A DNA stretch of 64,000 nucleotides from Candidatus Poribacteria bacterium. GTDB taxonomy: Bacteria > Poribacteria > WGA-4E > WGA-3G. Shown here in pieces: positions 3,019 to 28,255 of this stretch (positions are counted from its first letter, which is position 1; each line of letters starts with the position of its first letter). The DNA lies in NCBI GenBank assembly GCA_965242965.1, contig OZ251518.1, positions 4,544,001 to 4,608,000 of the forward strand. The letters are read 5' to 3'. The notes under the pieces are model-generated. The model ran no database searches and had not been told where the DNA came from. It worked only from the letters and a program-made list of their open reading frames with translations. The translations under genes were made by a program, and so were the position numbers.

Positions 3019-3025
3019 GAGAAAA

Positions 3026-4702: not shown

Positions 4703-4716
4703 ACGAAAAAGGCGTA

Positions 4717-5802: not shown

Positions 5803-5844
5803 GGTGTCATCTCCTTTTTTCATTGATGCAAAATCTTCTTGTCT

Positions 5845-6130
5845 TCCCGTAGGAGGGACATCCTTGTCCCGATTTCCCGTAGGAGGGACATCCTTGTCCC
5901 GATGATGAATTCCCGTAGGAGGATTTTCCTTTGTTCGAGACCAGGAGGTCTCTCCTACGGTTGTTGCCTTGATACACCGTAGCGCGGGGGCCTGTCCCCC
6001 GCGATCGCTCGACCCGCGCGAAAAACGCACGCAGACTAAGGCCGTTTTCCGTTCCGAGCGGGTTTCCCCCGCGATCACCGAAGGGCTCTCCTACTGAGGA
6101 TAATCGAGACCAGGAGGTCTCTCCTACTGC
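5845..6130. repeat. REP-like palindrome cluster
   Basis: Two tandem GTAGGAGGGACATCCTTGTCCCG, two CGAGACCAGGAGGTCTCTCCTAC, one GTAGCGCGGGGGCCTGTCCCCCGC. Confidence 0.85.
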
Positions 6131-6235
6131 AGATAACTGAATACACATTTTAAACGCGATTCGGTTTGCAATGCAAGCGAAAAATGTGATATACTGATTA
6201 TAGAAACGCAGTCCAAAAGTAAATAGGAGGAAAAC

Positions 6236-12244: not shown

Positions 12245-12250
12245 GGCACA

Positions 12251-12616
12251 ATGCAATTAAACCGAATTCACATTTCCGAAGATTCACGTCATAAGTTGAG
12301 CGTTTTGAAGGCGCGCACTGGGTTGTTACCCAACGTCCTCTGCCGGCTTGGGTTAACGCTTTCCCTTGAGGAATCCAACGAGCCAACCCTTGATGCTGAT
12401 GCGACGGATGGCTCAGAGTTTAACCGCTTTACCTTGATGGGGGAGTGGGATCCGTTGATTGTGGGACTCGTGGAGAGACGCTGTGCTTCCAACGGAAACG
12501 GCACAGACAACGGCGCGCTTGTTAAATACTTCCGCGCGCATCTGAACCGGGGGGTAGTTTTGCTTTACGGCCGCGTGAGAGGATTAGAAGACTTGACGAA
12601 CCTTCTTCCAGAATAG
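12251..12616 (+). CDS. dndE: DNA sulfur modification protein DndE
   Basis: LKARTGLLPNVLCR, EFNRFTL.GE, FRAHLNRG; directly follows dndD. Confidence 0.9.
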   Translation: MQLNRIHISEDSRHKLSVLKARTGLLPNVLCRLGLTLSLEESNEPTLDADATDGSEFNRFTLMGEWDPLIVGLVERRCASNGNGTDNGALVKYFRAHLNRGVVLLYGRVRGLEDLTNLLPE

Positions 12617-12696: not shown

Positions 12697-13179
12697 TTAC
12701 CAAACATCCGAGATTAAACTTTTGTATGGATCCCAATTCAAAAGTAAATCCACCAAGTTTGTGATTCTGTCGCCAGGCATATCTTCAACCTGATTCTGAA
12801 CCTCTATAATTCCACCGTTGGCGTATTCTTCCGCGATAGTTAGGATCTCCTCTTGATCTGTCAATATGTCAATGTCGCCAGTCACAGTGAGTGCTAATGC
12901 CCGAAGTAGTGGAACATCCGTATCGTGTGAAAATTGAGCCCAAGCGAAAATCATTTCTTTATCTTTTCCGAGCGGTACCCGCTTTTTCTCGTGGTAACCT
13001 ATGAAGGCAGCGAGCATGAAAATATTTTTCATGGACTCAAACGGGGGTAAATCTTCCTGACCTGCGTTTTCTCTCGATTTCGTCAGGGCGACGTAGATTG
13101 AATGATGGGACTTGTCAATCCGGATGCGATCTCGAGCTCTGGATTGTGGATTTCTACGTTCCTCAGTGTTATCTAGCAT
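12697..13179 (-). CDS. pbeD: Dnd-associated protein 4 / PbeD-like protein
   Basis: RIRIDK...PF....IFMLAAFIG...R.PL and EEYANGG pattern; last gene of the helicase/small protein/ATPase operon. Confidence 0.65.
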   Translation of the reverse strand: MLDNTEERRNPQSRARDRIRIDKSHHSIYVALTKSRENAGQEDLPPFESMKNIFMLAAFIGYHEKKRVPLGKDKEMIFAWAQFSHDTDVPLLRALALTVTGDIDILTDQEEILTIAEEYANGGIIEVQNQVEDMPGDRITNLVDLLLNWDPYKSLISDVW

Positions 13180-13196
13180 CGTATTATCCTCTCCTC

Positions 13197-15161
13197 CTAA
13201 ATTTCTTCAATGGTGGTTGTCTTCGTCTGCGGATTGAATTTCAATTCATATTCTGCACCGATTCGAGGCTTAAGGTTTGCCTTTGCTTCTGGACGCAATT
13301 CCTCATCAGTCACGAATAGGACTAGCTGCTTGGCAATATCAGGAAGGATTACCGTTATGTTTTTCCTATGTTCGCTGGAAAGCCTGCCGAAAGGCGTATC
13401 CATTACAATCGGAAATGGTTCCTCCTTCAGTTGAGGGATCGTTTTCTGAACAGCTACCTTTGCCATTGCGGCGATGAAAGCGAGGCTGAGGACCTGACGT
13501 TGCCCCGCAGAAAGTTCAGGCAGTACGTCCGCGCCATTTTCGTCGATCACCTGAAGTTGGTAATTTTCGCTCAGACGAACATGGGCAAAATGATCGCCGT
13601 TCCACACCAAACGTTTGAAAATTTGCCCAACTTCCACTTGGACTTGCTCACGTATCTCTTTTGAGAATATAGCGTAAATCGTCTTCATCGCGGTCGACGC
13701 ATCGCTGGCAAGTTTCCAAAATCTTTTTAGTTCTTCGGCTTTGGCGTTTGAATCCGTTTCAGTGCTGATTTGCTGCTCTTGCTTAGCTATGCCTTGGTTG
13801 ATTTCCAGGATTCTCCCCTTAGTTTCGTTTATCACTTCTTCTAATTTGGGGATTTTCGCTTCATATTCCTTGCGCCGTTCTTCTAAGGCACGGGCTTCAT
13901 CATGATCTAGATTTTCCAATTCGCGTCTAATGTTTTTTAAACGCGTTTCCTTCGCCTTTATATCTCGATCTAATTGTTCCGCCTTCCCCAAAACCAATTT
14001 TAAATTAGTTGGAAGGTTCCCTACTCGATCTTGCACTAAAAGGTTCAGATCATAAGTTTCCCGCGCGACATGTCCCAAGTCTGATGAAACAGATTGATTA
14101 AGAAGGTTACGGATAGTTTGAAACTCTGGGCTTCGATTGTCGATAGGTCTGCCACAGAGGCAACGCATCTCATTAAGAAGATCGCTAAGAAGTCCTGCAG
14201 GAATTCCTCTCTGGACTTCCGCCAAAATTTCCAATGCCTCATCAATAGCAGGTTTTGCTAACGCGATAAAGCCTTGATTAGCCAAACTCCGAATTTTTTC
14301 TTGGATTTCCGCTTTTTGGTGCTGAAACTGCTCTAGTTCTGCCTCAATTGCTTTACGTTTGTTGACAAGCATGCGTAATCCCTTGATGTCTTCCAGACGT
14401 TCGTCAATCTCCCGCTTTTGCTGCTTGGCAAGTGTCAATTCTTCCTGAGAACTCGCTATAACATCTGACAATTTGTCACGGGATGCTTCTTTCGCTGCTT
14501 TTTCATTGAGCAAAGCCTTTAGTTTGCCTGAGGCATGCTTCCTCGCTTCCCGCTGGTACTCACCGGTAATGTCTTCTAAATGTTTCATGCCGCGGGCAAC
14601 CTCTTCAATTTTTAAGACATTGCGCACAGCACTCTCAACTTCCTTTTTGCGTTCTGGCCTCGTGAAGTTGTTAATCTTCTCGCCATCAAAAAAGAAGTGA
14701 ACACTCACATCCTCAGGCATTATTGAACTAATCCAGGCTGATGCTTCGTCATCACTGAATTCGCGAAACTTGATTATTTCTAAGGAAAAGGGTGTTTCAA
14801 TCCGCGGATACAGTGTTTCTCCTACCGATAAATGCCTATGAATTTTCCGTTTGGCACAGAATTCGACTTCCTGGTCAGGAAACATTCCTTGATAAGTAAA
14901 ACGAAGTTCTACCGAGGTTACCACGTTTTCTCCCTCTGCAAGAGCACGCCTATTCACCAATTCGCCAATCTGTCCGATGTTTTTCTCAACAAATTTGTCG
15001 CCGTATAAACACCAGTTGATAGCAGTAAAGAGGGAGGTTTTCCCCGCGCCATTAACACCGTGAATAACCGTAACATGACGGTCGTCACTGGTAGCGAAAT
15101 TAATGGTGTGTTCCCCATAGTACTGCCGAAAATTTTTCAATGTTATGCTGCTAAGCTTCAT
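13197..15161 (-). CDS. pbeC: Rad50/SMC-like ATPase with CxC hook, PbeC-like
   Basis: GVNGAGKTS Walker A, FFFDGE, central CLCG, LSAGQRQ signature, VMDTPFGRL; start at MKLSS (15161). Confidence 0.75.
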   Translation of the reverse strand: MKLSSITLKNFRQYYGEHTINFATSDDRHVTVIHGVNGAGKTSLFTAINWCLYGDKFVEKNIGQIGELVNRRALAEGENVVTSVELRFTYQGMFPDQEVEFCAKRKIHRHLSVGETLYPRIETPFSLEIIKFREFSDDEASAWISSIMPEDVSVHFFFDGEKINNFTRPERKKEVESAVRNVLKIEEVARGMKHLEDITGEYQREARKHASGKLKALLNEKAAKEASRDKLSDVIASSQEELTLAKQQKREIDERLEDIKGLRMLVNKRKAIEAELEQFQHQKAEIQEKIRSLANQGFIALAKPAIDEALEILAEVQRGIPAGLLSDLLNEMRCLCGRPIDNRSPEFQTIRNLLNQSVSSDLGHVARETYDLNLLVQDRVGNLPTNLKLVLGKAEQLDRDIKAKETRLKNIRRELENLDHDEARALEERRKEYEAKIPKLEEVINETKGRILEINQGIAKQEQQISTETDSNAKAEELKRFWKLASDASTAMKTIYAIFSKEIREQVQVEVGQIFKRLVWNGDHFAHVRLSENYQLQVIDENGADVLPELSAGQRQVLSLAFIAAMAKVAVQKTIPQLKEEPFPIVMDTPFGRLSSEHRKNITVILPDIAKQLVLFVTDEELRPEAKANLKPRIGAEYELKFNPQTKTTTIEEI

Positions 15162-15321
15162 GTGCTTTGACCTCTTCTTGAATAATTCGGCGGATTTCAA
15201 GTTTGATTCCTTGAGGCTTCCTCATGTCCAATTTTTGGAGCTCTGCCTCAAGAACCTTCTCAATTACATTCCTTACTTGGGGTGGTAGAGTCTGTTTGAA
15301 CTCTTCTATTCCGTTTTTCAT
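15151..15321 (-). CDS. pbeB: 56-aa small protein, PbeB-like (missing from the ORF track)
   Basis: Hand translation gives MKNGIEEFKQTLPPQVRNVIEKVLEAELQKLDMRKPQGIKLEIRRIIQEEVKAHEA*. Its ATG overlaps the helicase TGA (ATGA) and its end overlaps the ATPase start. The name rests on gene position. Confidence 0.65.
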   Translation of the reverse strand: MKNGIEEFKQTLPPQVRNVIEKVLEAELQKLDMRKPQGIKLEIRRIIQEEVKAHEA

Positions 15322-17384
15322 TCAGAGCCTCCCAGTACACCCAACAGATTGTACCCTTTAGCGACTTCCCAAATCCTACTACGGGCATGAAACGGATTCA
15401 GGGCCATTCCGGCGAATTCGTTAAACCTCTTCAGTTCCCGTGCAACAATTTTACGCTCAGCGGCAAACGTTGCACTGGGATACTGCCGGTACGCCTGAGG
15501 CGGAACCGCGACGAGGTCATGTATCTCAGCGTGTTCTTTACCGGGGGCTTTCCGGAGAATTCGCCCGCGTCGTTGGATAAACTCCCTCGGATTGCTGCTG
15601 CTCGCGAGGATATAGGCGGTTTGCGTGCTCGGCACGTCAACCCCTTCATCTAGACACTTCATCGCTACTAGTGCCTGGAGGTGTCCCGATGCGAACATCT
15701 CCAACAATTCTCGCCGTTCAGTTGTGGATTCCTCTGCGGTAAATTTGGCAATGCGCAAGCCCAAATCGGTGAGCATCGGAAGTACTGAGTCAATTTGCCC
15801 AGGGGCACAGTAAAATAGCGCGTGATGAAGAGGCTCGTTTCTGTCCTCTAGCAGCTGCTCTAACACCTGCAACTTGTTTTCTGCTTTATTCAGCAGTGTT
15901 GCCCGTTTTATCAGTAACCTTTCAAGAGCCTCATTAGGCTCGTCGGTATTTGCGTGACGATACAGTCGCGCGATTCTATCGGTGAGGTTTTTGTACTCGT
16001 CAAGTTCCTCATCTGTCAATTCGACGAGATGGGGATAATAACAGTAGGGACAAAGACAACCTTCTTCGATCGCTTTGCGAAGAGAAAATTCGTAAACGGT
16101 TTCCCTAAAATATCTCTTGAGAGCAGCAGTCCCTTCATTGTCAAACCACCGGTTGGGCGTTGCCGACAAACCGAGCCGGTAATCGAAAACTTCCGGAAGT
16201 TTCTGTCGACTCTGAGTTGCTCCAAGATGATGAACTTCGTCGGCGACGAAAACGGCGGCACGTTTCAACTTGGAAAGCAGTTTCTGCATAGTGTCAGCGA
16301 TGAAGGTGCTATGCGTCGTAATGGTACACACAACGTCGCAAACCTGCCAATTGTATCGCATCAAGGCAGTATTGAATTGAGGCACCCACCGCACAGAACT
16401 TTCATAAGCCACTATCGGTTCAAATCCGAATTGTTCGGCTTCCTTGCGCCACTGGTTAACAAGATGCTTGTACGGACAAGCGATGAGAACAAACAGCGTA
16501 GCCTTTTCCTCCTTGAGTTTGGCAAGGGCAGCCAAAGCTGTGATTGTCTTTCCTGTCCCTGTCGCCATTTCCCACAAGCCACGGCAACCGTTTGCAAACC
16601 ATGCATCAATTGCTTCCTGTTGGTATGCTCTCAGGACCAGACCTCTCGGCAAATAAGCCTCTTCGGGCTCAACTACTACCGGTGAATCTGGGGATGGCAT
16701 TGTGTCGTAAACTAGTTGAGGACTTAAAAGCTCCTCTGCCAACGCTGTTGGAAAATCTACAACAGCCAACGTATCCGTTGCATTATTCCATAAACGCCTA
16801 AAATTGTCAACCTTTTGTTGAACGCGTTGCTGCGTATCCTCCGACGAGAGATAAACATCAATGGATTCAAAATTGCTCAGCAACCCACCGACAGTTTCAT
16901 TTAGCGACCCGGCGAATGCCACAGCGTTGTCGGTATCGTCTAAAAATATACCGAGCTTTTCGTGGTAAATCGCCCGTGGGTTTATTTCGCTTGCATCCGC
17001 TGTGCAAGCAATTTTGATATCCAAATGCCTATGCGCGATGAGCCACGTTAGCAATGCCAACCGATCTCGCGCAATTGTCTGAAACTCGCTTTCAGAGAAC
17101 CCTGCCAAAAATTGTGCATTTCTGGCCTCATAGCCGCGTTGGATTGCCTCAATATCATCCCTCGCTAAGCAGGGACCGGTTACCAGCCGCATTTTTCCGC
17201 TGCGCCGAATGAAGGTTGCTAGTCCTTTGGCATAGAGTGCGAGCCCACCACTGGTGAAATACCCAACAGCGCGCCAGTACCGCGTGGCATGACGCAGGCA
17301 CGGCGTGTAAAAATCCGCGACGAGGTCTGCACCATCCGAACGATATTCAGACCTGAGTGTAAGTTCTCTGAGTGACATAGACAT
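15318..17384 (-). CDS. pbeA: PLD-nuclease domain plus SF2 helicase (DNA phosphorothioation restriction enzyme, PbeA-like)
   Basis: VGYFTS, HEKLGIF...GSLN (PLD HxK), MATGTGKT, DEVHH, GLSATP, DEGVDVP, QRRGRILR. Confidence 0.8.
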   Translation of the reverse strand: MSMSLRELTLRSEYRSDGADLVADFYTPCLRHATRYWRAVGYFTSGGLALYAKGLATFIRRSGKMRLVTGPCLARDDIEAIQRGYEARNAQFLAGFSESEFQTIARDRLALLTWLIAHRHLDIKIACTADASEINPRAIYHEKLGIFLDDTDNAVAFAGSLNETVGGLLSNFESIDVYLSSEDTQQRVQQKVDNFRRLWNNATDTLAVVDFPTALAEELLSPQLVYDTMPSPDSPVVVEPEEAYLPRGLVLRAYQQEAIDAWFANGCRGLWEMATGTGKTITALAALAKLKEEKATLFVLIACPYKHLVNQWRKEAEQFGFEPIVAYESSVRWVPQFNTALMRYNWQVCDVVCTITTHSTFIADTMQKLLSKLKRAAVFVADEVHHLGATQSRQKLPEVFDYRLGLSATPNRWFDNEGTAALKRYFRETVYEFSLRKAIEEGCLCPYCYYPHLVELTDEELDEYKNLTDRIARLYRHANTDEPNEALERLLIKRATLLNKAENKLQVLEQLLEDRNEPLHHALFYCAPGQIDSVLPMLTDLGLRIAKFTAEESTTERRELLEMFASGHLQALVAMKCLDEGVDVPSTQTAYILASSSNPREFIQRRGRILRKAPGKEHAEIHDLVAVPPQAYRQYPSATFAAERKIVARELKRFNEFAGMALNPFHARSRIWEVAKGYNLLGVLGGSE

Positions 17385-17434
17385 TTTCCAAGCCGAAATT
17401 CTACCTCTGTTTTACCAAGTGCTTGAAAAGACTT

Positions 17435-17642
17435 CACCGAATAAATAAACCCTTATCGGAGTTGCAGTGCGGATTCGCGAGTCTCCAGCCCCACAAGTTG
17501 ACTGCCTCCGCCTTTGAGTTTTCGGTATGGACGCGATAGGAAACGCCGCGTCCTTGAAAAACCGAGCACGACACGCACCCGGTTCTGCGCAGTCCGAGAG
17601 CCGCCTTTTCCGTGCGACCGGCACGAACCCGCGCAATTCGTT
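17435..17642 (-). ncRNA. Putative structured RNA or leader of about 210 nt (copy 1)
   Basis: Begins just after a TTGCAA-17-TATCCT promoter; four hand-folded stem domains; differences between copies mostly avoid stems. Confidence 0.55.
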
Positions 17643-17648
17643 TTAAAT

Positions 17649-17869
17649 AGGATACCACAAAACGCGAAAATTTGCAAACAAAAAATGTGCGCGAATTTTC
17701 TGTGGATACGGTATCAACGTTCGCATTCTACAAAAAACGCCGATTTATGTCAACCACTTTTTTGTGCAAGCGATGCCTCAAAATCGGTTTTCCCATCAGT
17801 TTTTGAGGGTTTCAGCACAAATTAGCCAGACGTTCCTTTAATTTTACCACATTTTCACAAAAAAGTCAA
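17649..17869 (-). promoter_or_regulatory. Three tandem sigma70-like promoters
   Basis: TTGACT-17-TAAAAT (17869-17841), TTGACA-17-TAGAAT (17753-17725), TTGCAA-17-TATCCT (17677-17649). Confidence 0.7.
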
Positions 17870-17912
17870 ATTTTTCTTCATACGTTTTTGAACGCTTAGG
17901 CGAAATCACCGG

Positions 17913-19025
17913 TTATGATTTCCTCTGTCGATCTCGCCATTCAACAATCTGCCTCAAATCTTCGGCTAATTCCTGCTGAATATCAGGCTTGTCTATCGCT
18001 TCCTCAACCCATTTCACCCCATTCTTGACCAGTTGGGTGACCGTCCGAATATATTGAGCCGAGCTCGGCGCGTCCAAGCGTTGCCCAAAGTTGGTGATTC
18101 GTTCGTAAACCGCAACCGTGTGCATGATTTGATACCGCTTGTCTTCCTCCCACTTGTCGTCCCGATTATACAGATACGTTGGACCGCAGGTGACGTGCCA
18201 TCCCAGATCGAAGAGAGCCTGGTGAATGACGAATTTGGGAAGCGCGACGCAGAAAAATTCCGCGAAATTCTCACGGACGAGTTTCTTGACGTTATCGTGG
18301 CAATACCGGTTGACGAAAGCATCCCGAAAATCCTGACTTGCGCTGATATTCTCATTGACCCGATTCTCAAGTTGCTCAATCGCGGCTTGATTTATATGAT
18401 CTGAATCAATGTGAGAGGTGAGAAACAGCGTGAATTGGTTGCAAGGCCTCTGGTTAATCGGAAATGTTGCCTCCGTTTGCCACGCTAAAATTTGAAGTAT
18501 TGATTCCAGCAGTGGTGCTATTATCCCTTTTTTGGCGGGAAACATGACACCGAACACGTCAAGATTGACAATGTCAAACGGAAACGCTTCCTTCAAGCGA
18601 AGGTGGGTATCCTTGACTTGCAATTTTTCGCGAATTTCTGGTGAGTGGGGATTTTCACCTTCTTCCAGCCATGTCTTGCCAGATGTCTCTGCATCCTCCT
18701 TAAACAAGACAATTTCTTCAAATTCGCCCCGAAACCCCTGTTCAGGAGAACCGATGAAATCAGCGATTTTTCCGAAGTGCTCGCTGTTTTTCTCGCAGAA
18801 GTAAACACCTTCAAGGTATCCCGTGCCCGCGGCTCTCTCAAGAATTCCTGCGCGTTCTAACATAAAAACGTCAATTGCTTCGGCCGCACAGAAAGTAAAA
18901 TAGCGCAACGGAATCCTTTTTGAGCGCCTTCTGATTGCACGTTTTTGCTGCTGTGCTGCTGCCAGCCATCCGTCTGTTCTGACGTAATGTTTGAGAAGAT
19001 CGTCTTCATAATTGATGTGACTCAT
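17913..19025 (-). CDS. Hypothetical protein with a possible divergent SAM-methyltransferase (Rossmann) fold
   Basis: LRYFTFCAAEAIDV, VYFCE and FDIVNLD fall in the order of MTase motifs I, II and IV; co-oriented 22 bp behind the GHKL gene. Confidence 0.45.
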   Translation of the reverse strand: MSHINYEDDLLKHYVRTDGWLAAAQQQKRAIRRRSKRIPLRYFTFCAAEAIDVFMLERAGILERAAGTGYLEGVYFCEKNSEHFGKIADFIGSPEQGFRGEFEEIVLFKEDAETSGKTWLEEGENPHSPEIREKLQVKDTHLRLKEAFPFDIVNLDVFGVMFPAKKGIIAPLLESILQILAWQTEATFPINQRPCNQFTLFLTSHIDSDHINQAAIEQLENRVNENISASQDFRDAFVNRYCHDNVKKLVRENFAEFFCVALPKFVIHQALFDLGWHVTCGPTYLYNRDDKWEEDKRYQIMHTVAVYERITNFGQRLDAPSSAQYIRTVTQLVKNGVKWVEEAIDKPDIQQELAEDLRQIVEWRDRQRKS

Positions 19026-19047
19026 CTGAATAGAATCCTCTGGCGGT

Positions 19048-20655
19048 TTATAACAAACCGGACTTTACGAACTCTGATAAGAGACCGTAGAATTTTTCCC
19101 TACGTTTTTCTTCAGGGGCTTGCATGGAAATTTCAAACGCGTATGCGATAAGTTGCATAAGTTCCCGTTTGCTCTTCGGAGTTGGTAGGAATTTGCTTTG
19201 ATTGTTCTCAAGCACCTTCTCTCCAGACGGATCAACCATTAAAGGAAGTGACGATTCGTCAGTCGAAATCAAGACATAATCGTCTCCCAATTCTCGGTGG
19301 ATGAAGGCATTGAGCAGTGCCTGCTTTTCGGTTGCGCGCCCTTTACGTTTTGCCAGTGACCGTTCTCTTCCCCGGTGCCCTGCTTCGGGAAAAACTTCCG
19401 TTTCCAGCAAATTGTGGATAACCTCTTTGAGTTTTACAAAGTGCGGATGTATCTCATTGAAACTAGCCCGGTCAATATTGAGCGCGAATTCTAGCCCTCC
19501 TTCAACATCAACTTCGCCAGATATCCAATTGAAACGTGGATTGGGAATTCTCGGATAACTAAAGAGCGTGGCATCGTAAGTGCCGATAGCGACATTTCGG
19601 ATTCTTACTAGCAGCCCGCGGAGATCCATTGGTTCTATGGCACGCCCATCCTGCAAGTAAACATAGCCAGATATTCTGAAATTCTGACCATATACCTTCA
19701 CATTTTTATCAACAGCAAACAACCTCCCTGTTAGTTTGCCGCTTTCTGACGGTTGAGAGGCAAGTGGGTATCGGTGCGGGCGGCGTAACGACAACCCATC
19801 AACAACTACCTCAAATTGGTGTGTCTTTAAGGCTTGTTGCTGGTGGATGAGCCGTTCCTTGAGTTCCTGTGTTGCTACAATTTTGTCCCAATCAAAGGGA
19901 CCTGTCTCTACGTATGGCAAGGGGCATGCCACGGCGAGATCCCAAACCATCTGCCAGTATGGACTGACGGTTTTCGCCGATCGATTGGTGTGAATCTTCT
20001 TCAAGAATGCTGAGAAGATTGATGGCAGTCGATCTTTGCCTGAAGTTTCTCGAAACTTCCTTACAAAGGCGGAACGCATATCTGCAGCAATCACATAAGT
20101 TCCCGCTTTGTCAGGCTCATAGGCAACAGGCTCAATGCTAAATAGCCCTACATCAATCGGTTTCTCATCCGATGAATTTCCGGTTGAGGTTGCTGGTACA
20201 GGTTCTGGAGACACCTCGCTCACTTTTTCTCGCAGAAAATCAACTAAGCGTATCGTTGCGCGAAAAGCCGTTTGCGACGCTTTATGATGCGAGATAACCT
20301 GGAACTCGTGACAGATTTGGGCGATGCCTAGCATGCCGATGCCCAACCACCCAACGATAGGCCTGCCGAGAGTCGTGACATGACTCACCTTCCCCTCAGT
20401 AGTGGCGCGTTTGGTGCTATCACCGATGCCCTGACGCATAATCCTTTCAAACGTCTCTCGCGTCATGCCGCTGCCGTTGTCCCGGCATGTGATGATGTCG
20501 AAACTTGGCCAATTTGTGGTAATGGCGACACGAGTCGCGTCGGCATCAAACGCATTGCTGACGAGTTCTTTCAACGCGCCAGCCGGGCTGCGATAGATAC
20601 CCGCGCTGATGTGTCCCACTATTTTTGAACTGACTTCAATATTTTGCCAATCCAT
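19048..20655 (-). CDS. GHKL (MORC/Hsp90-like) ATPase
   Basis: IY.SP..ALKELVSNAFDA, DNGSGM, GDSTK, GWLGIG Bergerat motifs; S5-like region ending in LNIDRASF. Confidence 0.85.
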   Translation of the reverse strand: MDWQNIEVSSKIVGHISAGIYRSPAGALKELVSNAFDADATRVAITTNWPSFDIITCRDNGSGMTRETFERIMRQGIGDSTKRATTEGKVSHVTTLGRPIVGWLGIGMLGIAQICHEFQVISHHKASQTAFRATIRLVDFLREKVSEVSPEPVPATSTGNSSDEKPIDVGLFSIEPVAYEPDKAGTYVIAADMRSAFVRKFRETSGKDRLPSIFSAFLKKIHTNRSAKTVSPYWQMVWDLAVACPLPYVETGPFDWDKIVATQELKERLIHQQQALKTHQFEVVVDGLSLRRPHRYPLASQPSESGKLTGRLFAVDKNVKVYGQNFRISGYVYLQDGRAIEPMDLRGLLVRIRNVAIGTYDATLFSYPRIPNPRFNWISGEVDVEGGLEFALNIDRASFNEIHPHFVKLKEVIHNLLETEVFPEAGHRGRERSLAKRKGRATEKQALLNAFIHRELGDDYVLISTDESSLPLMVDPSGEKVLENNQSKFLPTPKSKRELMQLIAYAFEISMQAPEEKRREKFYGLLSEFVKSGLL

Positions 20656-20671
20656 AGCGCACCTCAGGAGT

Positions 20672-21161
20672 CAGGTTTTGTAACATGAGTGCATCAAGAA
20701 AGCCACCGAATAAATAAACTCTTATCGGAGTTGCAGTGCGGATTCGCGAGTCTCCAGCCCCACAAGTTGACTGCCTCCGCCTTTGAGTTAACGGTATGGA
20801 CGCGATAGGAAACGACGCGTCCTCGAAAAACCGAGCACGACACGCACCCGGTTCTGCGCAGTCCGAGAGCCGCCTTTTCCGTGCGACCGGCACGAACCCG
20901 CGCAATGCGTTTTAAATAGGATACCACAACATACGAAAATTTGCAAACAAAAAATGTGCGCGAATTTTCTGTGGATACGGCATCAACGTTCGCATTCTAC
21001 AAAAAACGCCGATTTATGTCAACCACTTTTTTGTGCAAGCGATGCCTCAAAATCGGTTTTCCTATCAATTTTTGAGGATTGCAGCACAAATTAGCCAAAC
21101 GTTCCTTTAATTTTACCACATTTTCACAAAAAAGTCAAATTTTTCTTCATCCGTTTTTGAA
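20672..21161 (-). repeat. Copy 2 of the promoter/structured-RNA element (upstream of the GHKL ATPase)
   Basis: Full-length match to copy 1, including all three promoters. Confidence 0.95.
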
Positions 21162-21190
21162 TACTTACAGGAGTTCCCTCGGCGACTGAG

Positions 21191-21489
21191 CAGGTTTTGT
21201 AACATGAGTGCATCAAGAAAGCCACCGAATAAATAAACCCTTATCGGAGTTGCAGTGCGGATTCGCGAGTCTCCAGCCCCACAAGTTGACTGCCTCCGCC
21301 TTTGAGTTAACGGTATGGACGCGATGGGAAACGCCGCGTCCTTGAAAAACCGAGCACGGCACGCACCCGGTTCTGCGCAGTCCGAGAGCCGCCTTTTCCG
21401 ACGCGACCGGCACGAACCCGCGCAATTCGTTTTAAATAGTATATCACAGAACGCGAAAATTTGCAAACAAAAAATGTGCGCGAATTTTC
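21191..21489 (-). repeat. Copy 3 (short; one promoter plus RNA, no gene downstream)
   Basis: Matches 20672-20969; promoter TTGCAA-17-TATACT; only 29 bp separate it from copy 2. Confidence 0.95.
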
Positions 21490-21520
21490 CTAAAGAAACA
21501 CGCCAATCCACCGAGTTTGA

Positions 21521-21567
21521 TAATCCTGCGAAATCCCGTAAATCTTGGAAATCCTGATTCAGACAAC
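21521..21567. repeat. Short tandem AATC(C/T)TG-type repeat ending in TCAGAC
   Basis: Related 9-bp tandem units also occur at about 34072-34115 and, on the opposite strand, 62282-62368. Confidence 0.7.
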
Positions 21568-21714
21568 TGATTTATCACATTTTCACAAAAATATCACATT
21601 TTTCTTGACAAATTTATCAGAAAATAATAGAATACCTATATTGACACTCTGTTCACGCTAAATGCGCGCAACAGAAATTACTAATGTCTCTAACCAACAG
21701 GAGGAATCTTGTTT

Positions 21715-22545
21715 ATGAGAATGTTTACTACCGTCGCTTATGTGCTGTGTGCCGCAGTCATCATGCTGGCAACAACAGCCGATGCAGCGAAGAAAATCGA
21801 TGTCTTCGTTTACACGGAGACCGTGCAGTGGATCGGCCAAGCACAAGCACAGGAAGAAGCCGACATACTGATCGAGGAAATTGAAGGCAAGCAAGGAATC
21901 GGTGAGGTTGTCAACGACCCGGCCAAGGCGGTTGAAGCCTGGACGAAGGACCATACCGTCGACAAGGGGAATCACATTATCGTCATGTTCGGGGATTTCC
22001 CTCAGGAAATTTATCCGAACGGTAAAGGCGACATCAAGAAGGGCTCCGTCGCTGAAGAATTCCTCGATGCCGGCAATACCTTCTCGAACAGTGCCGACTA
22101 CTTTTTCTGGGGACAAGGGGGCCGGAATGAAGCGCAAGGACTCCAAAACATGATGGATATCCCCGGAATCGTTCAGTGGGATGATGACACCCCGATGAAG
22201 GTGACGAAGGAAGGAAAGGACCTGACTCCGTCGTTGGACGATTACAACACGGACCGCCCGTTCCACCTCAATGAGCTCGATAACGATTGGGAATTGGAAA
22301 TCGCATTTGCAACCGAAACCGGCAAGGGGAGTAACGCGCAACGCTGCGATCCCTGTATCGTCCGGAACACGAAGACAGATGCACGCCTTATCCAAGTCTA
22401 CCAAACCAACAATCAGGATGATCCGAAAGGGGAAGTCATCGCGGAGATTATCCTGAACTACTATCTTGAAGTCGCGGGGGCCCTCGAGGTCGACCCGCAG
22501 GATAAACTGCCTACACGTTGGGCAGACATTAAAACTCGGAGGTAA
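21715..22545 (+). CDS. Secreted acidic hypothetical protein with Poribacteria-type C-terminal tail
   Basis: Signal peptide (..ADA), tail VDPQDKLPTRWADIK, paralog of the next gene; AGGAGG RBS and TTGACA-17-TAGAAT promoter at about 21605. Confidence 0.75.
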   Translation: MRMFTTVAYVLCAAVIMLATTADAAKKIDVFVYTETVQWIGQAQAQEEADILIEEIEGKQGIGEVVNDPAKAVEAWTKDHTVDKGNHIIVMFGDFPQEIYPNGKGDIKKGSVAEEFLDAGNTFSNSADYFFWGQGGRNEAQGLQNMMDIPGIVQWDDDTPMKVTKEGKDLTPSLDDYNTDRPFHLNELDNDWELEIAFATETGKGSNAQRCDPCIVRNTKTDARLIQVYQTNNQDDPKGEVIAEIILNYYLEVAGALEVDPQDKLPTRWADIKTRR

Positions 22546-22551
22546 TAATTG

Positions 22552-23355
22552 ATGCGAAACGTTTTTATACTTTTAACTGCCATGGCTCTCATGGCTCTCC
22601 CCTTGGCACCGCTGTTCGCAGCGGGCGAAGTGGCAATCTATACCGGCACCACGCAGTGGATCGGCAAGGAACCCGCTGACGAACAGGCGCAAATCTGCGT
22701 TGACATGCTCAACGATGCCGGAATCACGAACACGTGGTTTGATAGCGATGGCGACATGGATGCCCTCGCCGAGTGGATGGAAAGTGTCACCGGCGACCAG
22801 GGTGTGGATGTCTGTGTGCTTTACGGCGATCTGCCGCCGAGTGTCTATCCCGAAGGCAACTCACAGACAGATGGCTCCATCGGCGAAACCTTCATTGAGA
22901 CTACCGATGGCGATACGTTCATCAACCACGCCGATTATATGTTCTGGGGACTCGGCGGTCGAAATGAGACAGGCGGTTTGCAGAACATGATGGACATTGC
23001 AGAAATCACGATGTGGGACGATGATACCGCGATGACCGTCACGGCCGATGGCAAGGCCATCTCGCCGAGTCTGACCGATTTTGCGTCAGACCGCCCGTTC
23101 CACGTCGATGAACTCGATGGCGATTGGGAAGTTGAGGTATCTCTGGCACAGAGCGATGATGGCACGCGTGCGGATCCGATTATCGTTCGCGATGGCAACC
23201 TCGGCAGACTGATTCCGGTCATTCAGACGAACGGCGGCGATGAGCCGAAAGGCGCGGTCGCGGCGGAAATCATCACCTGGCTGATGTCCACCACGCCTGT
23301 TGAACCGGCTGGAAAGTTATCCACAACGTGGGGAGACTTGAAAGCAGTCCGATGA
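22552..23355 (+). CDS. Secreted acidic hypothetical protein, paralog of the previous gene
   Basis: Shared motifs QWIG, ADY.FWG.GGRNE..GLQNMMDI, DRPFH; tail VEPAGKLSTTWGDLK. Confidence 0.75.
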   Translation: MRNVFILLTAMALMALPLAPLFAAGEVAIYTGTTQWIGKEPADEQAQICVDMLNDAGITNTWFDSDGDMDALAEWMESVTGDQGVDVCVLYGDLPPSVYPEGNSQTDGSIGETFIETTDGDTFINHADYMFWGLGGRNETGGLQNMMDIAEITMWDDDTAMTVTADGKAISPSLTDFASDRPFHVDELDGDWEVEVSLAQSDDGTRADPIIVRDGNLGRLIPVIQTNGGDEPKGAVAAEIITWLMSTTPVEPAGKLSTTWGDLKAVR

Positions 23356-24272
23356 GTGTTTTTGTTAGGGCGGCGAGGGCTATCCGAAGCCATCGCCGCC
23401 TCTCTCCAATGATATGTCCAGTGATATGCCCATTACTGTGTATTGTCCTCTCGTTGCTAGCGTTCGTTTCCTGCAATGAGCGGGTGGATTCTCCCATCGT
23501 TGGCACCTTGCCCATCGCAACGCTCACCACAGACAAAGATGCAGCCACCATGGTCTACGTTCCTGCAGGCGAGTTTTTGATGGGCACCAGCGATGCAGAC
23601 ATGGAGCAGTATAAAGTGCTGTTCCCTCTCCGCAAAATCTCCCGTTTTGACAACGAACGTCCGCAGCGCAAAGTGTTTGTTGATGCGTTCTACATTGACA
23701 GAACGGAGGTTACGAATCGGCAATACAAGCGGTTTCTCACCGAAACCGGCTACGAACCGAAGCACTATTTGGATTATTTGCCCTACAACGCGCCCGATTT
23801 GCCAGCCACGGTGCTGGAGTGGGAGGATGCTGTTGCTTATACCGAGTGGGCAGGCAAACGGCTGCCTACCGAGGCGGAATGGGAGAAGGCGGCGCGAGGC
23901 ACAGATGGACGTTTCTGGCCCTGGGGCAATGAATGGGATGCCACGAAACTGAGCGGTAATGACGGCACCGGGCTCAAAGACGGTTACAAGGAAACCGCGC
24001 CGGTTGCGCAATTTCCGCAAGGCGCGAGCCCTTACGGCGCGCTGGATATGGCAGGGAATCTGTGGGAGTGGGTATCCGATTGGTATGATGCCGACTACTA
24101 CCGCAAAAACCCGAGCAATGTGAATCCACAAGGACCGGAGACTGGGGATGGACACGTTTTGAAAGGCGGCGGCTGGGCAGAAAATTTAGACTTCACCCGA
24201 TGTGCCAATCGGCTGGGAGGAAATCCGGGCTCACTTTTGCGCGGTTTCCGTTGCGCCATGGACGCGCCATGA
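23352..24272 (+). CDS. Formylglycine-generating enzyme (FGE/SUMF1) family protein, possible lipoprotein
   Basis: GEFLMG, FYIDRTEVTN, RLPTEAEWEKAARG, DMAGNLWEW, GFRC. Confidence 0.9.
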   Translation: MSVFVRAARAIRSHRRLSPMICPVICPLLCIVLSLLAFVSCNERVDSPIVGTLPIATLTTDKDAATMVYVPAGEFLMGTSDADMEQYKVLFPLRKISRFDNERPQRKVFVDAFYIDRTEVTNRQYKRFLTETGYEPKHYLDYLPYNAPDLPATVLEWEDAVAYTEWAGKRLPTEAEWEKAARGTDGRFWPWGNEWDATKLSGNDGTGLKDGYKETAPVAQFPQGASPYGALDMAGNLWEWVSDWYDADYYRKNPSNVNPQGPETGDGHVLKGGGWAENLDFTRCANRLGGNPGSLLRGFRCAMDAP

Positions 24273-24299
24273 AACAGAATTGAAACAGAATGAGACAGA

Positions 24300-24797
24300 A
24301 TGAAACAGATTGGCACGCATGCAAACCCAGATCTGGATGCCATCGTCAGCGCATGGCTCGCACAAGATTTCCTCTTTCGCGGGCAACCGACAGAGGTGGT
24401 GTTCGTCAGCCGAAAAGTCCCTGAAAAGGTCATGCAGACAGCTGCTTGTCTCGTTGATGTCGGCAACACTTACTGTCCCGAACGTTATCGGTTTGACCAC
24501 AAGCCGCCGGCATTTGCGAACCGAAACAGCACGTGTGCGACGCGATTAATTTGGGAACATTTGCGGGAGATAGGTGTGAAAGTAGAACACCTTGCACCGC
24601 TCGTTCAGGTGACTTATGAAGGGGATACGCATCGGAATTCGGCGGCTCTCAAACAGAGTCGCATCGACGGGGCGCACGCGGAATTAGCGAAATTGAAGAG
24701 GAAATATCGGAAGACGATGGACATCTATCAACGGATGGTTGTCTGGTTGCGAGAACATGCGCGACAATTAAGGGAGGTAGAAACCAATGGCGTTTAG
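24300..24797 (+). CDS. Small DHH/MYG1-like phosphoesterase-fold protein
   Basis: THANPDLDA, LVDVG and RFDHK resemble DHH/MYG1 motifs. Confidence 0.5.
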   Translation: MKQIGTHANPDLDAIVSAWLAQDFLFRGQPTEVVFVSRKVPEKVMQTAACLVDVGNTYCPERYRFDHKPPAFANRNSTCATRLIWEHLREIGVKVEHLAPLVQVTYEGDTHRNSAALKQSRIDGAHAELAKLKRKYRKTMDIYQRMVVWLREHARQLREVETNGV

Positions 24798-25425
24798 TGA
24801 TTTTAAATCCATCCCTGAAGTCTTAAAAATATTCAGAATAGCACACGCCCAAGATGATTTTGTCAGGGGCGAGGAGACCTTAGCACCCTCAAAGCAATTT
24901 GTCCAAGAATTGAAGTTCGCCCAACGGCATATTAACATTTTCAGATCTGAGGGCGCGCGGTGTGAGACGGTCATCTATCCGGTCTTACGCGAAGTCTACA
25001 AGGCCTATGCTGAGAACTACGTGCTCTGGATTAAGGAGCCTCTTACCTACGATGCAATCTTGAGCGGCACGCCGGATTACTTCATCGCCACAAAATCTAA
25101 ATTCGGCAAACCCGTTATTGGGACACCTCTGGTGATCCTCGTCGAGGCGAAGAAAAACGATTTTGAGGTAGGGTGGGGGCAATGTCTCGCCGAGTTAATC
25201 GCCGCACAGAAAATCAATGCCCAGAACATCAAGGAACACGCGACGTTTCCGGTGTATGGCATCGTGACAGATGGCATCGGGTGGCAGTTTGGGAAACTTG
25301 TCGGCGACACTTTTACCGAGAACCTCACGCTGTTTGGCCTGGCAGATTTGCCGCGGTTGTTTGGCGCAATCGATGCTGTCTTCAAAGAGGTTCAAAAAGG
25401 CAGCATCGCGACTACGGAACAATAA
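24787..25425 (+). CDS. PD-(D/E)xK nuclease-fold protein (HsdR_N-like), paralog 1
   Basis: SE..R.E, GTPDY, VEAKK, GQC.AE, YGIVTDG..WQF. Confidence 0.7.
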   Translation: MAFSDFKSIPEVLKIFRIAHAQDDFVRGEETLAPSKQFVQELKFAQRHINIFRSEGARCETVIYPVLREVYKAYAENYVLWIKEPLTYDAILSGTPDYFIATKSKFGKPVIGTPLVILVEAKKNDFEVGWGQCLAELIAAQKINAQNIKEHATFPVYGIVTDGIGWQFGKLVGDTFTENLTLFGLADLPRLFGAIDAVFKEVQKGSIATTEQ

Positions 25426-25565
25426 CCCCGCGGCGGTTTTCGCAGTCGGCGTTTCTGGGACAGGCACGGTGTTGCCTTACCAGAAGAGGAGTGGAACCGT
25501 AGGAGAGACCTCCCGGTCTCGATGCACCCTCGGTGTGTTGCTTTACCAGAAGAGGAGTGGAACCG

Positions 25566-26204
25566 ATGGCGTTTAGTGATTTTAAGACGCTCACTGAAGT
25601 GCAAGAAAGATTCGGCATTAGGGACTCGGAAATTGACTTTGTCAAGGTTGACAAACTCTTAAACCCTCCGGAGCATTTCCTGCAAGAATTAGCGTTTACT
25701 CGGCAGCACCTTAATGTTTTCCGGTCTGAATCGGCACGGTGCGAGGCGATTATCTATCCGATTTTATTGCAAAACTATAAAGCGTATGCCGACAGTTATA
25801 TGCTCTGGATTCGCGAACCGCTCGTCTACGATGCAATCTTGAGCGGCACGCCGGACTACTTTATCGCTACCCGCTCGGCATTGGGAAAAAACGTTGTCGG
25901 CACACCTTTGGTGATAGTCGTCGAGGCGAAGAAAAACGATTTTGAGGTAGGTTGGGGGCAATGTCTCGCCGAGTTAATCGCCGCGCAGAAAATCAATGCC
26001 CAGAACATCGAGGAACACGCGGCGTTTCCGGTGTATGGCATCGTAACTGACGGGACGACATGGCAGTTTGGCAGGCTTGTTGATGACAGTTTCACGCGAA
26101 ACATCACGCCATTTGGTCTCGGCGATTTGCCGCGGTTGTTTGGCGCAATTGATGCAGTCTTCAAAGCCGTCCAAAACGGAGACACCGCACACGCAGAATT
26201 GTAA
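25566..26204 (+). CDS. PD-(D/E)xK nuclease-fold protein, paralog 2
   Basis: Same motifs; start at MAFSDF behind an AGGAG RBS. Confidence 0.7.
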   Translation: MAFSDFKTLTEVQERFGIRDSEIDFVKVDKLLNPPEHFLQELAFTRQHLNVFRSESARCEAIIYPILLQNYKAYADSYMLWIREPLVYDAILSGTPDYFIATRSALGKNVVGTPLVIVVEAKKNDFEVGWGQCLAELIAAQKINAQNIEEHAAFPVYGIVTDGTTWQFGRLVDDSFTRNITPFGLGDLPRLFGAIDAVFKAVQNGDTAHAEL

Positions 26205-26279
26205 TCCACCGGGGCTTTGTCCCAATCGGCATTTTCGGGACAGGCACGGTGTTGCTTTACCAGAACAGGAGGCGAACCG

Positions 26280-26924
26280 ATGGCATTGAGTGATTTCAAA
26301 TCGATTGCTGAAGTGCAAGCAAAATTCAGCATCAAGGCTTCAAAAGAGACGCTTATCGGGGTTGAGGAACCCTTAACGCCTTCGGAGTGGTTTCAGCAAG
26401 AATTCGCTTTCAACATGCAACAGTTCAACTTTGCCGACTCTGAGATGGCACGGTGTCAGGCACTTATCTTCCCAGTTTTACGGGAGGTCTACAAGGCTTA
26501 TGCCGAGGACTACGTGCTCTGGATTGACGCATCTCTGGCTTACGATGAAACTTTAAGCGGCACGCCGGACTACTTCATCGCCACGAAATCTGAACTCGGT
26601 GGGCGTATTCTCGGAACGCCGCTGATAATCGTTGTTGAGGCGAAGAAAAACGATTTTGAGATAGGTTGGGGACAATGTCTGGCAGAGTTAATCGCCGCAC
26701 AGAAAATCAATGCCCAGAACATTAAGGAACACGCGATGTTTCCGGTGTATGGTATCGTCACCGACGGTATAAGTTGGCAATTCGGGAAACTTGTCGGCGA
26801 CACTTTTACAGAGAACCTCACGCCGTTTAGTCTCGGCGATTTGCCGCGTCTGTTTGGCGCAATCGATGCTGTCTTCAAAGCCGTTCAGAACGGAAGCACC
26901 GCCTCACCGGAAAGAGAATCATGA
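26280..26924 (+). CDS. PD-(D/E)xK nuclease-fold protein, paralog 3
   Basis: Same motifs; start at MALSDF behind an AGGAGG RBS. Confidence 0.7.
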   Translation: MALSDFKSIAEVQAKFSIKASKETLIGVEEPLTPSEWFQQEFAFNMQQFNFADSEMARCQALIFPVLREVYKAYAEDYVLWIDASLAYDETLSGTPDYFIATKSELGGRILGTPLIIVVEAKKNDFEIGWGQCLAELIAAQKINAQNIKEHAMFPVYGIVTDGISWQFGKLVGDTFTENLTPFSLGDLPRLFGAIDAVFKAVQNGSTASPERES

Positions 26925-28255
26925 AACATTTTGCAACGCTATTCACGACGCTGTTTGCGGTATCGTTCCTATTTATCACGCCCGAGGGGACGCGCCTATT
27001 CGCCGATGAGTGGCCGCAGTGGCGCGGCACACACCGCGACGGTATCTGGAACGAAACGGGAATAATTGACGCTTTTGAGGACGCGGATATTCCTATCCGC
27101 TGGCGCGTGCCAATCGGCAGCGGTTACAGCGGCCCAAGCGTCGCCGATGGACGCGTCTACGTCACCGACCGGCTCACGAAGCCGACGCAAGTTGAACGCG
27201 TCCACTGCTTTGACTGGGAGACAGGCGAGCAACTCTGGACTTTCACATACGAGTGCGCTTATCGGATTGACTACACCGCCGGGCCGCGCGCCACCGTCAC
27301 CGTCCACGATGGACTCGCCTACGCCTTAGGCGCGATGGGACATTTGCACTGCTTTAATGCCGCCACCGGCGAAATTGTGTGGAAAAATGACTTGGGTGTA
27401 ACGTATAATATCAATATGCCAACCTGGGGCATCGCGAGCGCGCCGATTGTCGTGGGAGAACACCTCATCGTGCAAATCGGCGGCACACCCGGCGCGTGCA
27501 TCGTCGCATTGGACAGAAAAACCGGCGAGGAAAGGTGGAAGGCACTAGACGATAAGGCATCCTATTCCGCACCGATGCTCATCACGCAAGCCGGACAGCG
27601 CGTCTTAATCTGCTGGACAGGCGGACACGTCGCCGCTCTGAATCCACAGACAGGCGAAGTGTTGTGGCTCTATCCGTTTAAACCGACGCGCATGGAGATA
27701 GGCATCGCTACACCGGTTTTCCATGAGAATGAACTCTTTATCACCGATTTCTTTGAGGGTTCCCTACTGCTGAAACTGGCACCGGATAAATTGGCTGTGG
27801 AACTCGGCTGGCACCGCAAAGGCAAAGACGAGCAAAATACGGACGCGCTCCATTCCACGATGGCTACGCCGATTCGGGAGGGCGATTACATCTACGGCGT
27901 GGATAGTTACGGCGAACTCCGCTGTCTGGATGCGCGCAACGGCGACAGGGTGTGGGAAGATCTCTCCGCTGTGCCGAGGGCGCGCTGGAGCAACATCCAT
28001 TTTATTAAAAACGGTGCCAAGGTTTGGATGTTCAACGAGCGCGGCGAACTCCTCATTACCGAACTTTCGCCTGAGGGGTTGAACGTCATCAGCCGCGCGA
28101 AGTTAATCGAACCTACGCGAGACCAGCTGAACCGGCGAGGCGGCGTAACTTGGGCGCACCCCGCGTTCGCCTATCAACATGTTTTCGCGCGGAATGATAA
28201 CGAACTAGTCTGCGCAAGCCTCGCGAAAAACGAAAAACCACACAAAGGAGAATAA
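26921..28255 (+). CDS. PQQ-binding-like (BamB-like) beta-propeller protein
   Basis: Signal peptide, WPQWRG, repeated D..TG...W Trp-docking motifs. Confidence 0.85.
   Translation: MKHFATLFTTLFAVSFLFITPEGTRLFADEWPQWRGTHRDGIWNETGIIDAFEDADIPIRWRVPIGSGYSGPSVADGRVYVTDRLTKPTQVERVHCFDWETGEQLWTFTYECAYRIDYTAGPRATVTVHDGLAYALGAMGHLHCFNAATGEIVWKNDLGVTYNINMPTWGIASAPIVVGEHLIVQIGGTPGACIVALDRKTGEERWKALDDKASYSAPMLITQAGQRVLICWTGGHVAALNPQTGEVLWLYPFKPTRMEIGIATPVFHENELFITDFFEGSLLLKLAPDKLAVELGWHRKGKDEQNTDALHSTMATPIREGDYIYGVDSYGELRCLDARNGDRVWEDLSAVPRARWSNIHFIKNGAKVWMFNERGELLITELSPEGLNVISRAKLIEPTRDQLNRRGGVTWAHPAFAYQHVFARNDNELVCASLAKNEKPHKGE

Follow-up and report, generated by a model that had tools for sequence, protein, structure and literature searches.

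T-box leaders and riboswitches are multi-copy cis-regulatory leader RNAs, and leaders of processive antitermination include the put RNA, EAR, and the LoaP- and UpxY-dependent leaders. ToxI is a type III antitoxin RNA, and integron arrays (Pc/attI/attC) include chromosomal ones that are rich in defence genes. The known coordinators of bacterial defence are protein regulators, which act as WYL/BrxR-type repressors, as an extracytoplasmic function (ECF) sigma factor in Myxococcus, through H-NS silencing, or through quorum sensing. Two abiF motifs are present in the RCd22 non-coding RNA (ncRNA) of Clostridioides difficile, which binds AbiF directly and thereby neutralises it (PMC12373285). The element described here is a repeated non-coding unit on the minus strand of a stretch of 64,000 nucleotides (contig OZ251518.1 of assembly GCA_965242965.1, positions 4,544,001 to 4,608,000) from Candidatus Poribacteria bacterium; the whole stretch is referred to as the window.

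The element is a unit linked to defence; it bears a promoter, is occasionally portable, and is neither an island-specific repeat nor a recombination system. Its family, fold, position, cargo, and distribution are directly observed, and the analysis suggests that unrelated immune genes of one sponge-associated group of Poribacteria share one RNA-based control or expression adaptor. No description of a structured leader common to many defence systems, or of any RNA motif of Poribacteria, was listed by full-text searches of the literature, subscription journals being outside this scope. The genomes compared are that of the window itself (G000, 94.7% complete), those of two other species of the same genus (G001 and G002), and one from a sister genus (G004).

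The leader RNA family and its fold

One copy of the element consists of a sigma70-type promoter and an RNA of about 150-215 nt. Copies in G000 were first collected by an iterated nhmmer search, which gave about 20 diverged copies of the part comprising promoter 3 and the RNA, and 24 copies from three genomes were aligned with MAFFT (alignment A1). On the raw MAFFT alignment, RNAalifold recovered one helix only; the structure was then drawn by hand, the other helices being tested after they had been drawn, and the covariance model R1 was built from it, together with R2, a model of the 5' domain alone. R1 has 20 matches in G000 (three of which are the window copies), 11 in G001, and 14 in G002; there are two weak and partial matches in G004, limited to the 5' domain, and none in 108 other genomes of the taxonomic family. 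The same distribution is obtained with R2 (18 matches in G000, 12 in G001, 13 in G002, two in G004, and none in the 108 others). The copies of G000 are dispersed over about 17 separate sites, and 17 of the 20 R1 matches lie outside the defence island of the window, which disproves the claim of the preliminary description, made from the window alone, that the element is restricted to this island. An exact-pattern scan for the 3' domain, with one genome per species, returned 16 stretches: seven belong to a single Candidatus Poribacteria metagenome-assembled genome (MAG), and the other nine are single scattered matches, of which those rescored with R1 reach at most 20-26 bits. A metagenome pattern scan returned seven stretches, of which two gave a score with R1; these scores being weak and partial (22.6 and 25.7 bits), they were taken as chance.

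Most copies start with a near-identical promoter, TTTTTTGTTTGCAAATTTT-N-TTTTGTGGTATCCTAT, in which the -35 box is TTGCAA and a spacer of 17 nt leads to a -10 box extended by TG; a minority has a promoter of the type TTGACA-17-TATAAT. The RNA is folded into two domains. The 5' domain (about 60 nt) is made of a closing helix P0, a helix P1 (GGUUCG with CGGACC and a G-C pair past a bulged U), an internal loop, and a helix P2. The 3' domain (about 75 nt) contains an outer helix AACUC/GAGUU, followed by a helix CGGAG/CUCCG, a conserved bulge GCAGUCAAC, a helix UUGCAG/CUGCAA at the base of a hairpin that varies, and the tail UAUUCGU, which is conserved. The two domains are separated by a region of variable hairpins and by a GACGCG...CGCGUC hairpin, and the invariant unpaired stretches are GGUUCGUGAAC/CACUCGG in the 5' domain and GGAGGCAGUCAACUUG/CUGCAACUCC in the 3' domain. 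There are four tandem leader pairs, in two of which the second RNA lacks a promoter of its own; both RNAs would therefore be co-transcribed in series, as in tandem riboswitches. The leader of the second Tiamat (TmtA) gene shows two 5' domains in series ahead of one 3' domain (G000:C1 4395388-4395664; G001:C175 720-998).

The fold is strongly supported by covariation. In the alignment of the 34 strongest copies fitted to the model (A3), standard pairs occupy 91.9% of 1093 cells, and this share falls to 33-43% if the 3' strands are displaced by 1-3 columns; both-side (compensatory) changes are present in 15 of 34 pairs, and in 500 shuffles of the columns the observed values of the five measures are never attained. 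The same test on the unfitted MAFFT alignment gives 90.9% paired and 12 pairs with both-side changes. Many of the pairs are G-U, which ties the fold to one strand, the sense one with respect to the gene downstream. The fold of one copy RNA as a single sequence is not significant (z -1.61, with 14 of 200 shuffles equally good), so that the structured segment of about 210 nt noted in the preliminary description stands by the covariation over 34 copies and not by single-sequence stability. The motif CUGC can pair with either of two copies of GCAG, both pairings being compatible with the alignment data, which would leave room for a conformational switch.

None of the 4227 families of Rfam 15 matches the window at the gathering thresholds, and in the region 15000-24000 a search at E<=1 returned only a chance-level gyrA match inside the gene of a GHKL ATPase; the element is a new RNA family. 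A leader peptide or upstream open reading frame (uORF) after the internal GGAGG-N8-UUG was considered and rejected, the phases being 13/10/8 relative to the conserved 3' strand and the open reading frames (ORFs) extending over 1-86 codons.

Genes behind the leader and their inheritance

Every strong copy is followed, tens of bases downstream, by a co-oriented long ORF or by another copy in tandem. In G000 the first genes encode PbeA, a GHKL ATPase, an HKD+Snf2 protein, GmrSD, an NsnB/AriA-like ATPase, Dsr1, two different TmtA (Tiamat), SspD, two type I/IIG methylases, two FRG-TPR proteins (PDC-S15), a STAND NTPase, a tubulin-like/HSDR_N protein, a Sel1-trypsin protein, an LRR-dockerin protein, and an SNase-like protein; the exceptions are one truncated copy and one tandem orphan. 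The first genes of G001 and G002 are PDC-S15 (five times, once as the second gene only), HerA, TmtA (three times), MTase_I (twice), an NsnB-like ATPase, Csx1 (CARF-HEPN), HKD+Snf2, a ParB_N/HTH_ParB/MBL-exonuclease-like operon, ParA-like ATPases, and orphan genes; a DrmMII-like C5 methylase and then a GHKL protein are found behind a tandem leader pair in both species. The cargo thus spans more than 12 unrelated protein families. Among the leader-linked genes of the three genomes none looks housekeeping, and hence the copies outside the window do not lie mostly beside housekeeping genes.

First downstream genes were counted when they had a PADLOC match at E <=1e-16. This is the case for 12 of the 20 first genes of G000, 8 of 14 in G002, and 7 of 11 in G001 (27 of 45 overall). 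The control consisted of 94 non-overlapping ORFs of at least 300 aa from 12 arbitrary 20-kb regions of G000 (L171-L182), of which 22 are matched; the odds for leader-linked genes are about five-fold (Fisher one-sided p=0.002, an upper bound on significance). So many matches among arbitrary ORFs mean that G000 is unusually defence-rich, and the control matches include a second HKD+Snf2 beside a type IIG enzyme, three tandem PDC-S11, and several methylases; none of the 22 has a leader. The proposal that the element heads defence modules, first made for the window, is supported across the genome and in all three species. In composition the cargo is foreign, with a low GC content of 43-53% vs a genome mean of 54.2% (5th percentile 50.4% in 2-kb windows), and the leaders have 47-61% GC. 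The FRG-TPR (PDC-S15) genes form a cluster in which each gene has its own leader, with three to four leaders in about 7 kb; this arrangement is kept in two species (G000:C1 4767-4775 kb, L059; G002:C1 2043-2050 kb, L107).

In a maximum-likelihood tree of 34 leaders, the copies group by cargo orthologue across the three species for HKD-Snf2, TmtA1, TmtA2, MTase_I, HSDR_N proteins, NsnB, and PDC-S15; the grouping extends to the DrmMII tandem pair, whose members A and B are each placed with their counterpart. Most leader-cargo pairs therefore predate the species and were inherited together. Two clades break the cargo rule: the LRR leader is placed with that of TmtA1, and the three window copies are placed with a G002 tandem pair (100/100).

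The window copies and the hotspot

The three minus-strand copies claimed for the window were recovered by both a repeat search and BLAST, the limits of copies 2 and 3 being now revised, and each contains one R1 match:

17435-17892, minus strand: element copy 1, the reference copy, 458 nt
20704-21161, minus strand: element copy 2, 97% identity to copy 1 over 458 nt
21223-21522, minus strand: element copy 3, promoter P3 and RNA part only, 97% identity over query 193-458, the last ~266 nt of the unit
17437-17638, minus strand: leader RNA of copy 1, R1 match with 160.6 bits, directly upstream of pbeA
20706-20907, minus strand: leader RNA of copy 2, R1 match, upstream of the GHKL operon
21225-21427, minus strand: leader RNA of copy 3, R1 match, in tandem with copy 2, no gene between

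The duplicated unit runs from about 17898 to 17418 in copy 1, where it ends 34 nt from the pbeA start codon, and from about 21167 to 20688 in copy 2, where it ends 33 nt from the GHKL gene. The following predicted promoters and repeats lie in or next to the copies:

17841-17869, minus strand: promoter P1 of copy 1, TTGACT-17-TAAAAT, 10/12 in the promoter scan
21110-21138, minus strand: promoter P1 of copy 2, TTGACT-17-TAAAAT, 10/12 in the promoter scan
17725-17753, minus strand: promoter P2 of copy 1, TTGACA-17-TAGAAT, 11/12 in the promoter scan
20994-21022, minus strand: promoter P2 of copy 2, TTGACA-17-TAGAAT, 11/12 in the promoter scan
17649-17677, minus strand: promoter P3 of copy 1, TTGCAA-17-TATCCT, TG-extended, read from the sequence and conserved upstream of most family copies
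21438-21466, minus strand: promoter P3 of copy 3, TTGCAA-17-TATACT, 9/12, found by the scan
21571-21615, minus strand: diverged P1-like promoter beyond copy 3
17761-17821, minus strand: inverted repeat (hairpin) between promoters P1 and P2 of copy 1, fold z -2.76, none of 200 shuffles as stable
17702-17718, no strand: imperfect palindrome GTTGAT-N5-ATCAAC between promoters P2 and P3, candidate operator

Three sigma70-like promoters had been attributed to each full copy; P1 and P2 are returned by the scan, and in copies 1 and 2 P3 (TTGCAA-17-TATCCT, preceded by TG) reaches 8/12 by eye, just under the scan threshold. In the region 12 promoter-like sites were counted vs 5.2 +/- 2.3 in shuffles. 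The large inverted repeat also described earlier is supported by its stability relative to the shuffles. The palindrome GTTGAT-N5-ATCAAC occurs within 200 nt upstream of 5 of the 20 G000 copies, with a chance expectation of 0.16; its other sites (G000:C1 154934, 3578471, 4395744, and 4564971) are located between a promoter of the TTGACA-17-TAGAAT type and the family promoter. It could be the operator of a dimeric regulator, and its five copies may share ancestry. The P1-type promoter (TTGAC-N-TGTGGTAAAAT, with flanks) recurs in the window at 21571-21615, 17843-17887, and 21112-21156, and also at the unrelated sites G000:C1 4029688, 3493048, and 2895905 and C2 2999.

The genes behind copies 1 and 2 are the following, those of copy 2 spanning 17913-20655 on the minus strand:

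15318-17384, minus strand: pbeA (PLD + helicase), first gene behind copy 1, PADLOC PbeA 4.6e-246
15151-15321, minus strand: pbeB candidate, a 56-aa ORF, by its place between pbeA and pbeC
13197-15200, minus strand: pbeC, PADLOC PbeC 3.1e-130
12697-13179, minus strand: dnd_assoc_4-like gene of 160 aa, 65 bits, under the 74-bit cut-off, no PADLOC match
19048-20655, minus strand: GHKL ATPase, first gene behind copy 2, N-terminus like BbrUII/HgiDII-type restriction enzymes, sub-threshold
17913-19025, minus strand: 370-aa protein, second gene behind copy 2, no Pfam/PADLOC match, sub-threshold PP_RS20740 only

The operon behind copy 1 had been named pbeABCD, of which PbeA and PbeC are supported by PADLOC, the 56-aa ORF is only a candidate PbeB, and the 160-aa dnd_assoc_4 gene remains sub-threshold. 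In the pair behind copy 2, described as GHKL and methyltransferase-like, the GHKL assignment holds, and the 370-aa protein has neither a Pfam nor a PADLOC match in support of the second. The genes dndC, dndD, and dndE (8829-12616, plus strand) lie tail to tail with the pbe genes (12697-17384, minus strand), as expected of a phosphorothioation module and its Pbe partner; dndC has no leader according to R1 in G000.

The island that contains these genes is a syntenic hotspot. Its left flank (window 1500-6206) matches G002 3045332-3049507, and its right flank, from window 21650, matches G002 from 3057180 onwards with 91% identity:

21650-27650, plus strand: right flank of the variable island, conserved and with synteny to G001, G002, and G004

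The tandem leaders of G002 (3056478-3056910) are at the same place beside the right flank, with the ParB_N operon behind them, so that the clade of the window copies heads three different cargos (the PbeA, GHKL, and ParB_N operons) at one hotspot. The queries used yielded, in G001 and G002, no orthologue of either the pbe genes or the GHKL pair. In G004 a pbeA remnant of 60 residues, with 83% identity to residues 2-61, is present at the syntenic hotspot (G004:C1 4948945-4949124; L168 1501-1680). A promoter homologous to P1 lies 38 nt from its ATG, and no leader precedes it, the best score with filters off being 3.1 bits; about 420 nt that include the hairpin, promoters P2 and P3, and the RNA are present in G000 and not before the G004 remnant. 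This segment was either inserted in the lineage of G000 or lost by G004. An 8-nt direct repeat, TGGTAAAA, is found at both junctions of the segment in G000 (window 17833-17840 and 17413-17420, minus strand); the 3' junction was read by eye, the global alignment of the G000 and G004 upstream regions having misplaced it. The repeat could be a target-site duplication or chance, and neither terminal inverted repeats nor a transposase were seen at copy 1. An occasional portability of the element, as first proposed, agrees with the 97%-identical unit before two unrelated operons, with the window-copy clade before the ParB_N operon of G002, and with the leaderless G004 remnant; its description as an expression unit fits too, since it carries its own promoter.

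The contigs of four short-read runs were placed on the window, contig depth being a weak measure. They end at the repeat borders and hence are neutral on the triplication and on alleles without 17893-20671; one contig of 4140 nt (run X5) spans 16558-20701 and thus joins pbeA and copy 1 to the GHKL cassette. Each of the four runs covers 15000-21500 less deeply than the right flank, 21537-23500 (179 vs ~3900 in X5), which suggests a strain-variable island carried by some strains only. The many alternative contig ends at 21522-21570 were considered as alleles and rejected, the site being a promoter repeated in the genome.

Possible function of the leader and comparison with known systems

From the promoters and the strand-specific covariation we infer that the leader is transcribed, and we further infer that it acts in cis and has a regulatory role. 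The reading that we place first, at about even confidence, takes the repeat for a leader RNA of this lineage that acts in cis, binds a single common partner, and gives the immune operons a shared post-initiation control. A sigma70-type promoter would start the mRNA, the two-domain RNA of about 150-215 nt forming its 5' end with the operon behind. The invariant unpaired stretches of both domains would most likely bind the common partner, for which a protein, the transcription or translation machinery, and a small ligand are candidates; through this partner the shared control could be exerted on read-through, mRNA stability, or translation. The unit would be mostly inherited with its cargo and occasionally copied before new cargo, as in the window.

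Different observations weigh against this reading. The copies are related by descent, so that the counts of defence matches and their Fisher p=0.002 overstate independence; moreover, many defence genes of G000 have no leader, which is therefore no marker of defence in general, and a few cargos (the LRR-dockerin and SNase-like proteins and the ParA-like ATPases) are not obviously defensive. The structure was drawn by hand from the same related sequences, and A3 was fitted to it. No conserved expression platform was found, the stretch from the RNA to the start codon varies over about 25-150 nt, and the terminator-like hairpins 3' of the RNA, which follow some copies only (for example those of HKD-Snf2 in G000 and of PDC-S15), are not kept even between orthologues. 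Finally, a family confined to one genus, with fragments in another, is unusual for a metabolite riboswitch.

More tentatively, the leader can be seen as the lineage's own immunity sensor RNA, which would answer a common infection or stress cue, or one trans-acting factor, and switch the whole immune regulon; new defence cassettes at island hotspots would be enrolled by gaining a leader copy. If this were true, a dozen or more unrelated defence systems would be switched together at the RNA level. For the coordination of many costly and potentially toxic defence systems, a covarying shared leader would be an RNA-level route. In genomes of the lineage, the leader is also an inexpensive marker by which candidates for new defence genes can be picked out, including the STAND NTPase, the tubulin-like/HSDR_N protein, the pair of GHKL and 370-aa proteins, the ParB_N operon, and a 549-aa orphan, and it offers an object of about 200 nt with defined invariant loops.

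A serious rival, to which we give a rather low probability, is a portable and signal-blind adaptor: newly acquired low-GC defence genes would be expressed from a strong native promoter, behind a 5' structure that protects or insulates, for example from RNases, Rho, or silencing; such a unit would spread by duplication or insertion and sense nothing. The cargo is low in GC and the leader has the native GC content, as this adaptor would have them, and it would also account for the nearly identical unit before two unrelated operons of the window, for one leader clade with different cargo at the syntenic hotspot, and for the G004 remnant, which has the homologous P1 and no leader, as if about 420 nt with TGGTAAAA at both junctions had been inserted in G000. 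However, the long invariant single strands and the covarying multi-helix fold exceed the needs of a stabilising hairpin, and most leader-cargo pairs are older than the species split, with no sign of recent mobility. Neither terminal inverted repeats nor a transposase were seen, the junction repeat is a single one that may have arisen by chance, and a loss of the leader in G004 is equally conceivable.

An RNA-only leader for processive antitermination or antagonism of Rho, like put of phage HK022 or EAR, which would allow polymerase read-through of a long foreign operon, is a further serious rival, of low probability. The position of the element at the very start of long, low-GC, multi-gene operons, its conserved RNA structure with invariant loops, and the fact that this mechanism needs no fixed distance to the start codon are consistent with it. 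In contrast, several cargos are single genes and there is no similarity to the antitermination RNAs of Rfam; the LoaP/RfaH/UpxY type is further opposed by the absence of a NusG paralogue, each of 17 genomes, leader-bearing or not, having one PF02357 match.

Still less probable is a separate small RNA that would work in trans or, in the manner of type III toxin-antitoxin systems and RCd22/AbiF, serve the neighbouring protein as its antitoxin-like partner, and that would be a discrete species of about 200 nt ending at GAGUUUAUUCGU. Its own promoter, the tandem copies, the terminator-like hairpins after some copies, and the precedent of RCd22, which neutralises AbiF directly (PMC12373285), speak for such an RNA, but the cargo belongs to more than 12 unrelated families, one leader clade stands before unrelated cargos, and the terminators after the RNA are not conserved, orthologues included. 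In addition, the invariant 13-mer has no complementary (antisense) target elsewhere in the genome, and its 17 extra near-matches, several of which are in LRR-repeat coding sequence, all lack the 3' partner motif.

That the element is the recombination site of an integron-like system gaining, losing, and shuffling defence cassettes is very improbable and largely refuted, and the recombination unit that the preliminary description proposed for such gain, loss, or shuffling is not supported. The window order element-cargo-element-cargo with an orphan copy, the variable cargo at a conserved hotspot, and the island depth below the right flank in all four runs are in its favour, but the integron integrase TIGR02249, the one recombinase model run, has no match at E<=1e-5 in the 94.7% complete G000, the elements are at about 17 dispersed sites and not in arrays, they are placed upstream (5') of genes and come with promoters, conservation extends to the sequence and not to the structure alone, leaders group with cargo orthologues in stably co-inherited pairs, and recombination between direct repeats would leave one copy and not a tandem pair.

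The comparison with the described systems follows the same lines. Integron arrays resemble the present case in that a structured repeat marks the limits of a hotspot's variable defence cargo; in integrons, however, attC is at the 3' end of promoterless cassettes, whereas the element is upstream, promoter-bearing, dispersed, conserved in sequence, and co-inherited, and no integrase was found. With the antitermination leaders the element shares its place as a conserved leader heading long, horizontally acquired operons; unlike the LoaP, RfaH, and UpxY leaders, it occurs in genomes without a dedicated NusG paralogue and has no homology to them. The abiF motif of RCd22 and ToxI are likewise structured RNAs with their own promoter just upstream of an anti-phage gene and consist of repeated RNA modules, but they bind directly one cognate protein family, whereas the element precedes more than 12 unrelated ones; it has no match to Rfam RF03085 (abiF) and, in contrast to a type III antitoxin RNA, no conserved terminator between the RNA and the gene. 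The T-box leaders and riboswitches differ from the element in that its 3' flanks have no recognisable terminator/antiterminator or Shine-Dalgarno-sequestering platform, its cargo serves anti-phage defence and not metabolism, its promoter is conserved with the RNA, and it is limited to one genus among those searched. As in these leaders, a structured RNA of about 200 nt with covarying helices and invariant loops is present in a predicted 5' untranslated region, co-oriented with the gene and close to it, and many diverged copies per genome, sometimes in tandem, precede functionally related operons. The element, a new RNA family, would belong to the cis-regulatory leaders common to a regulon.

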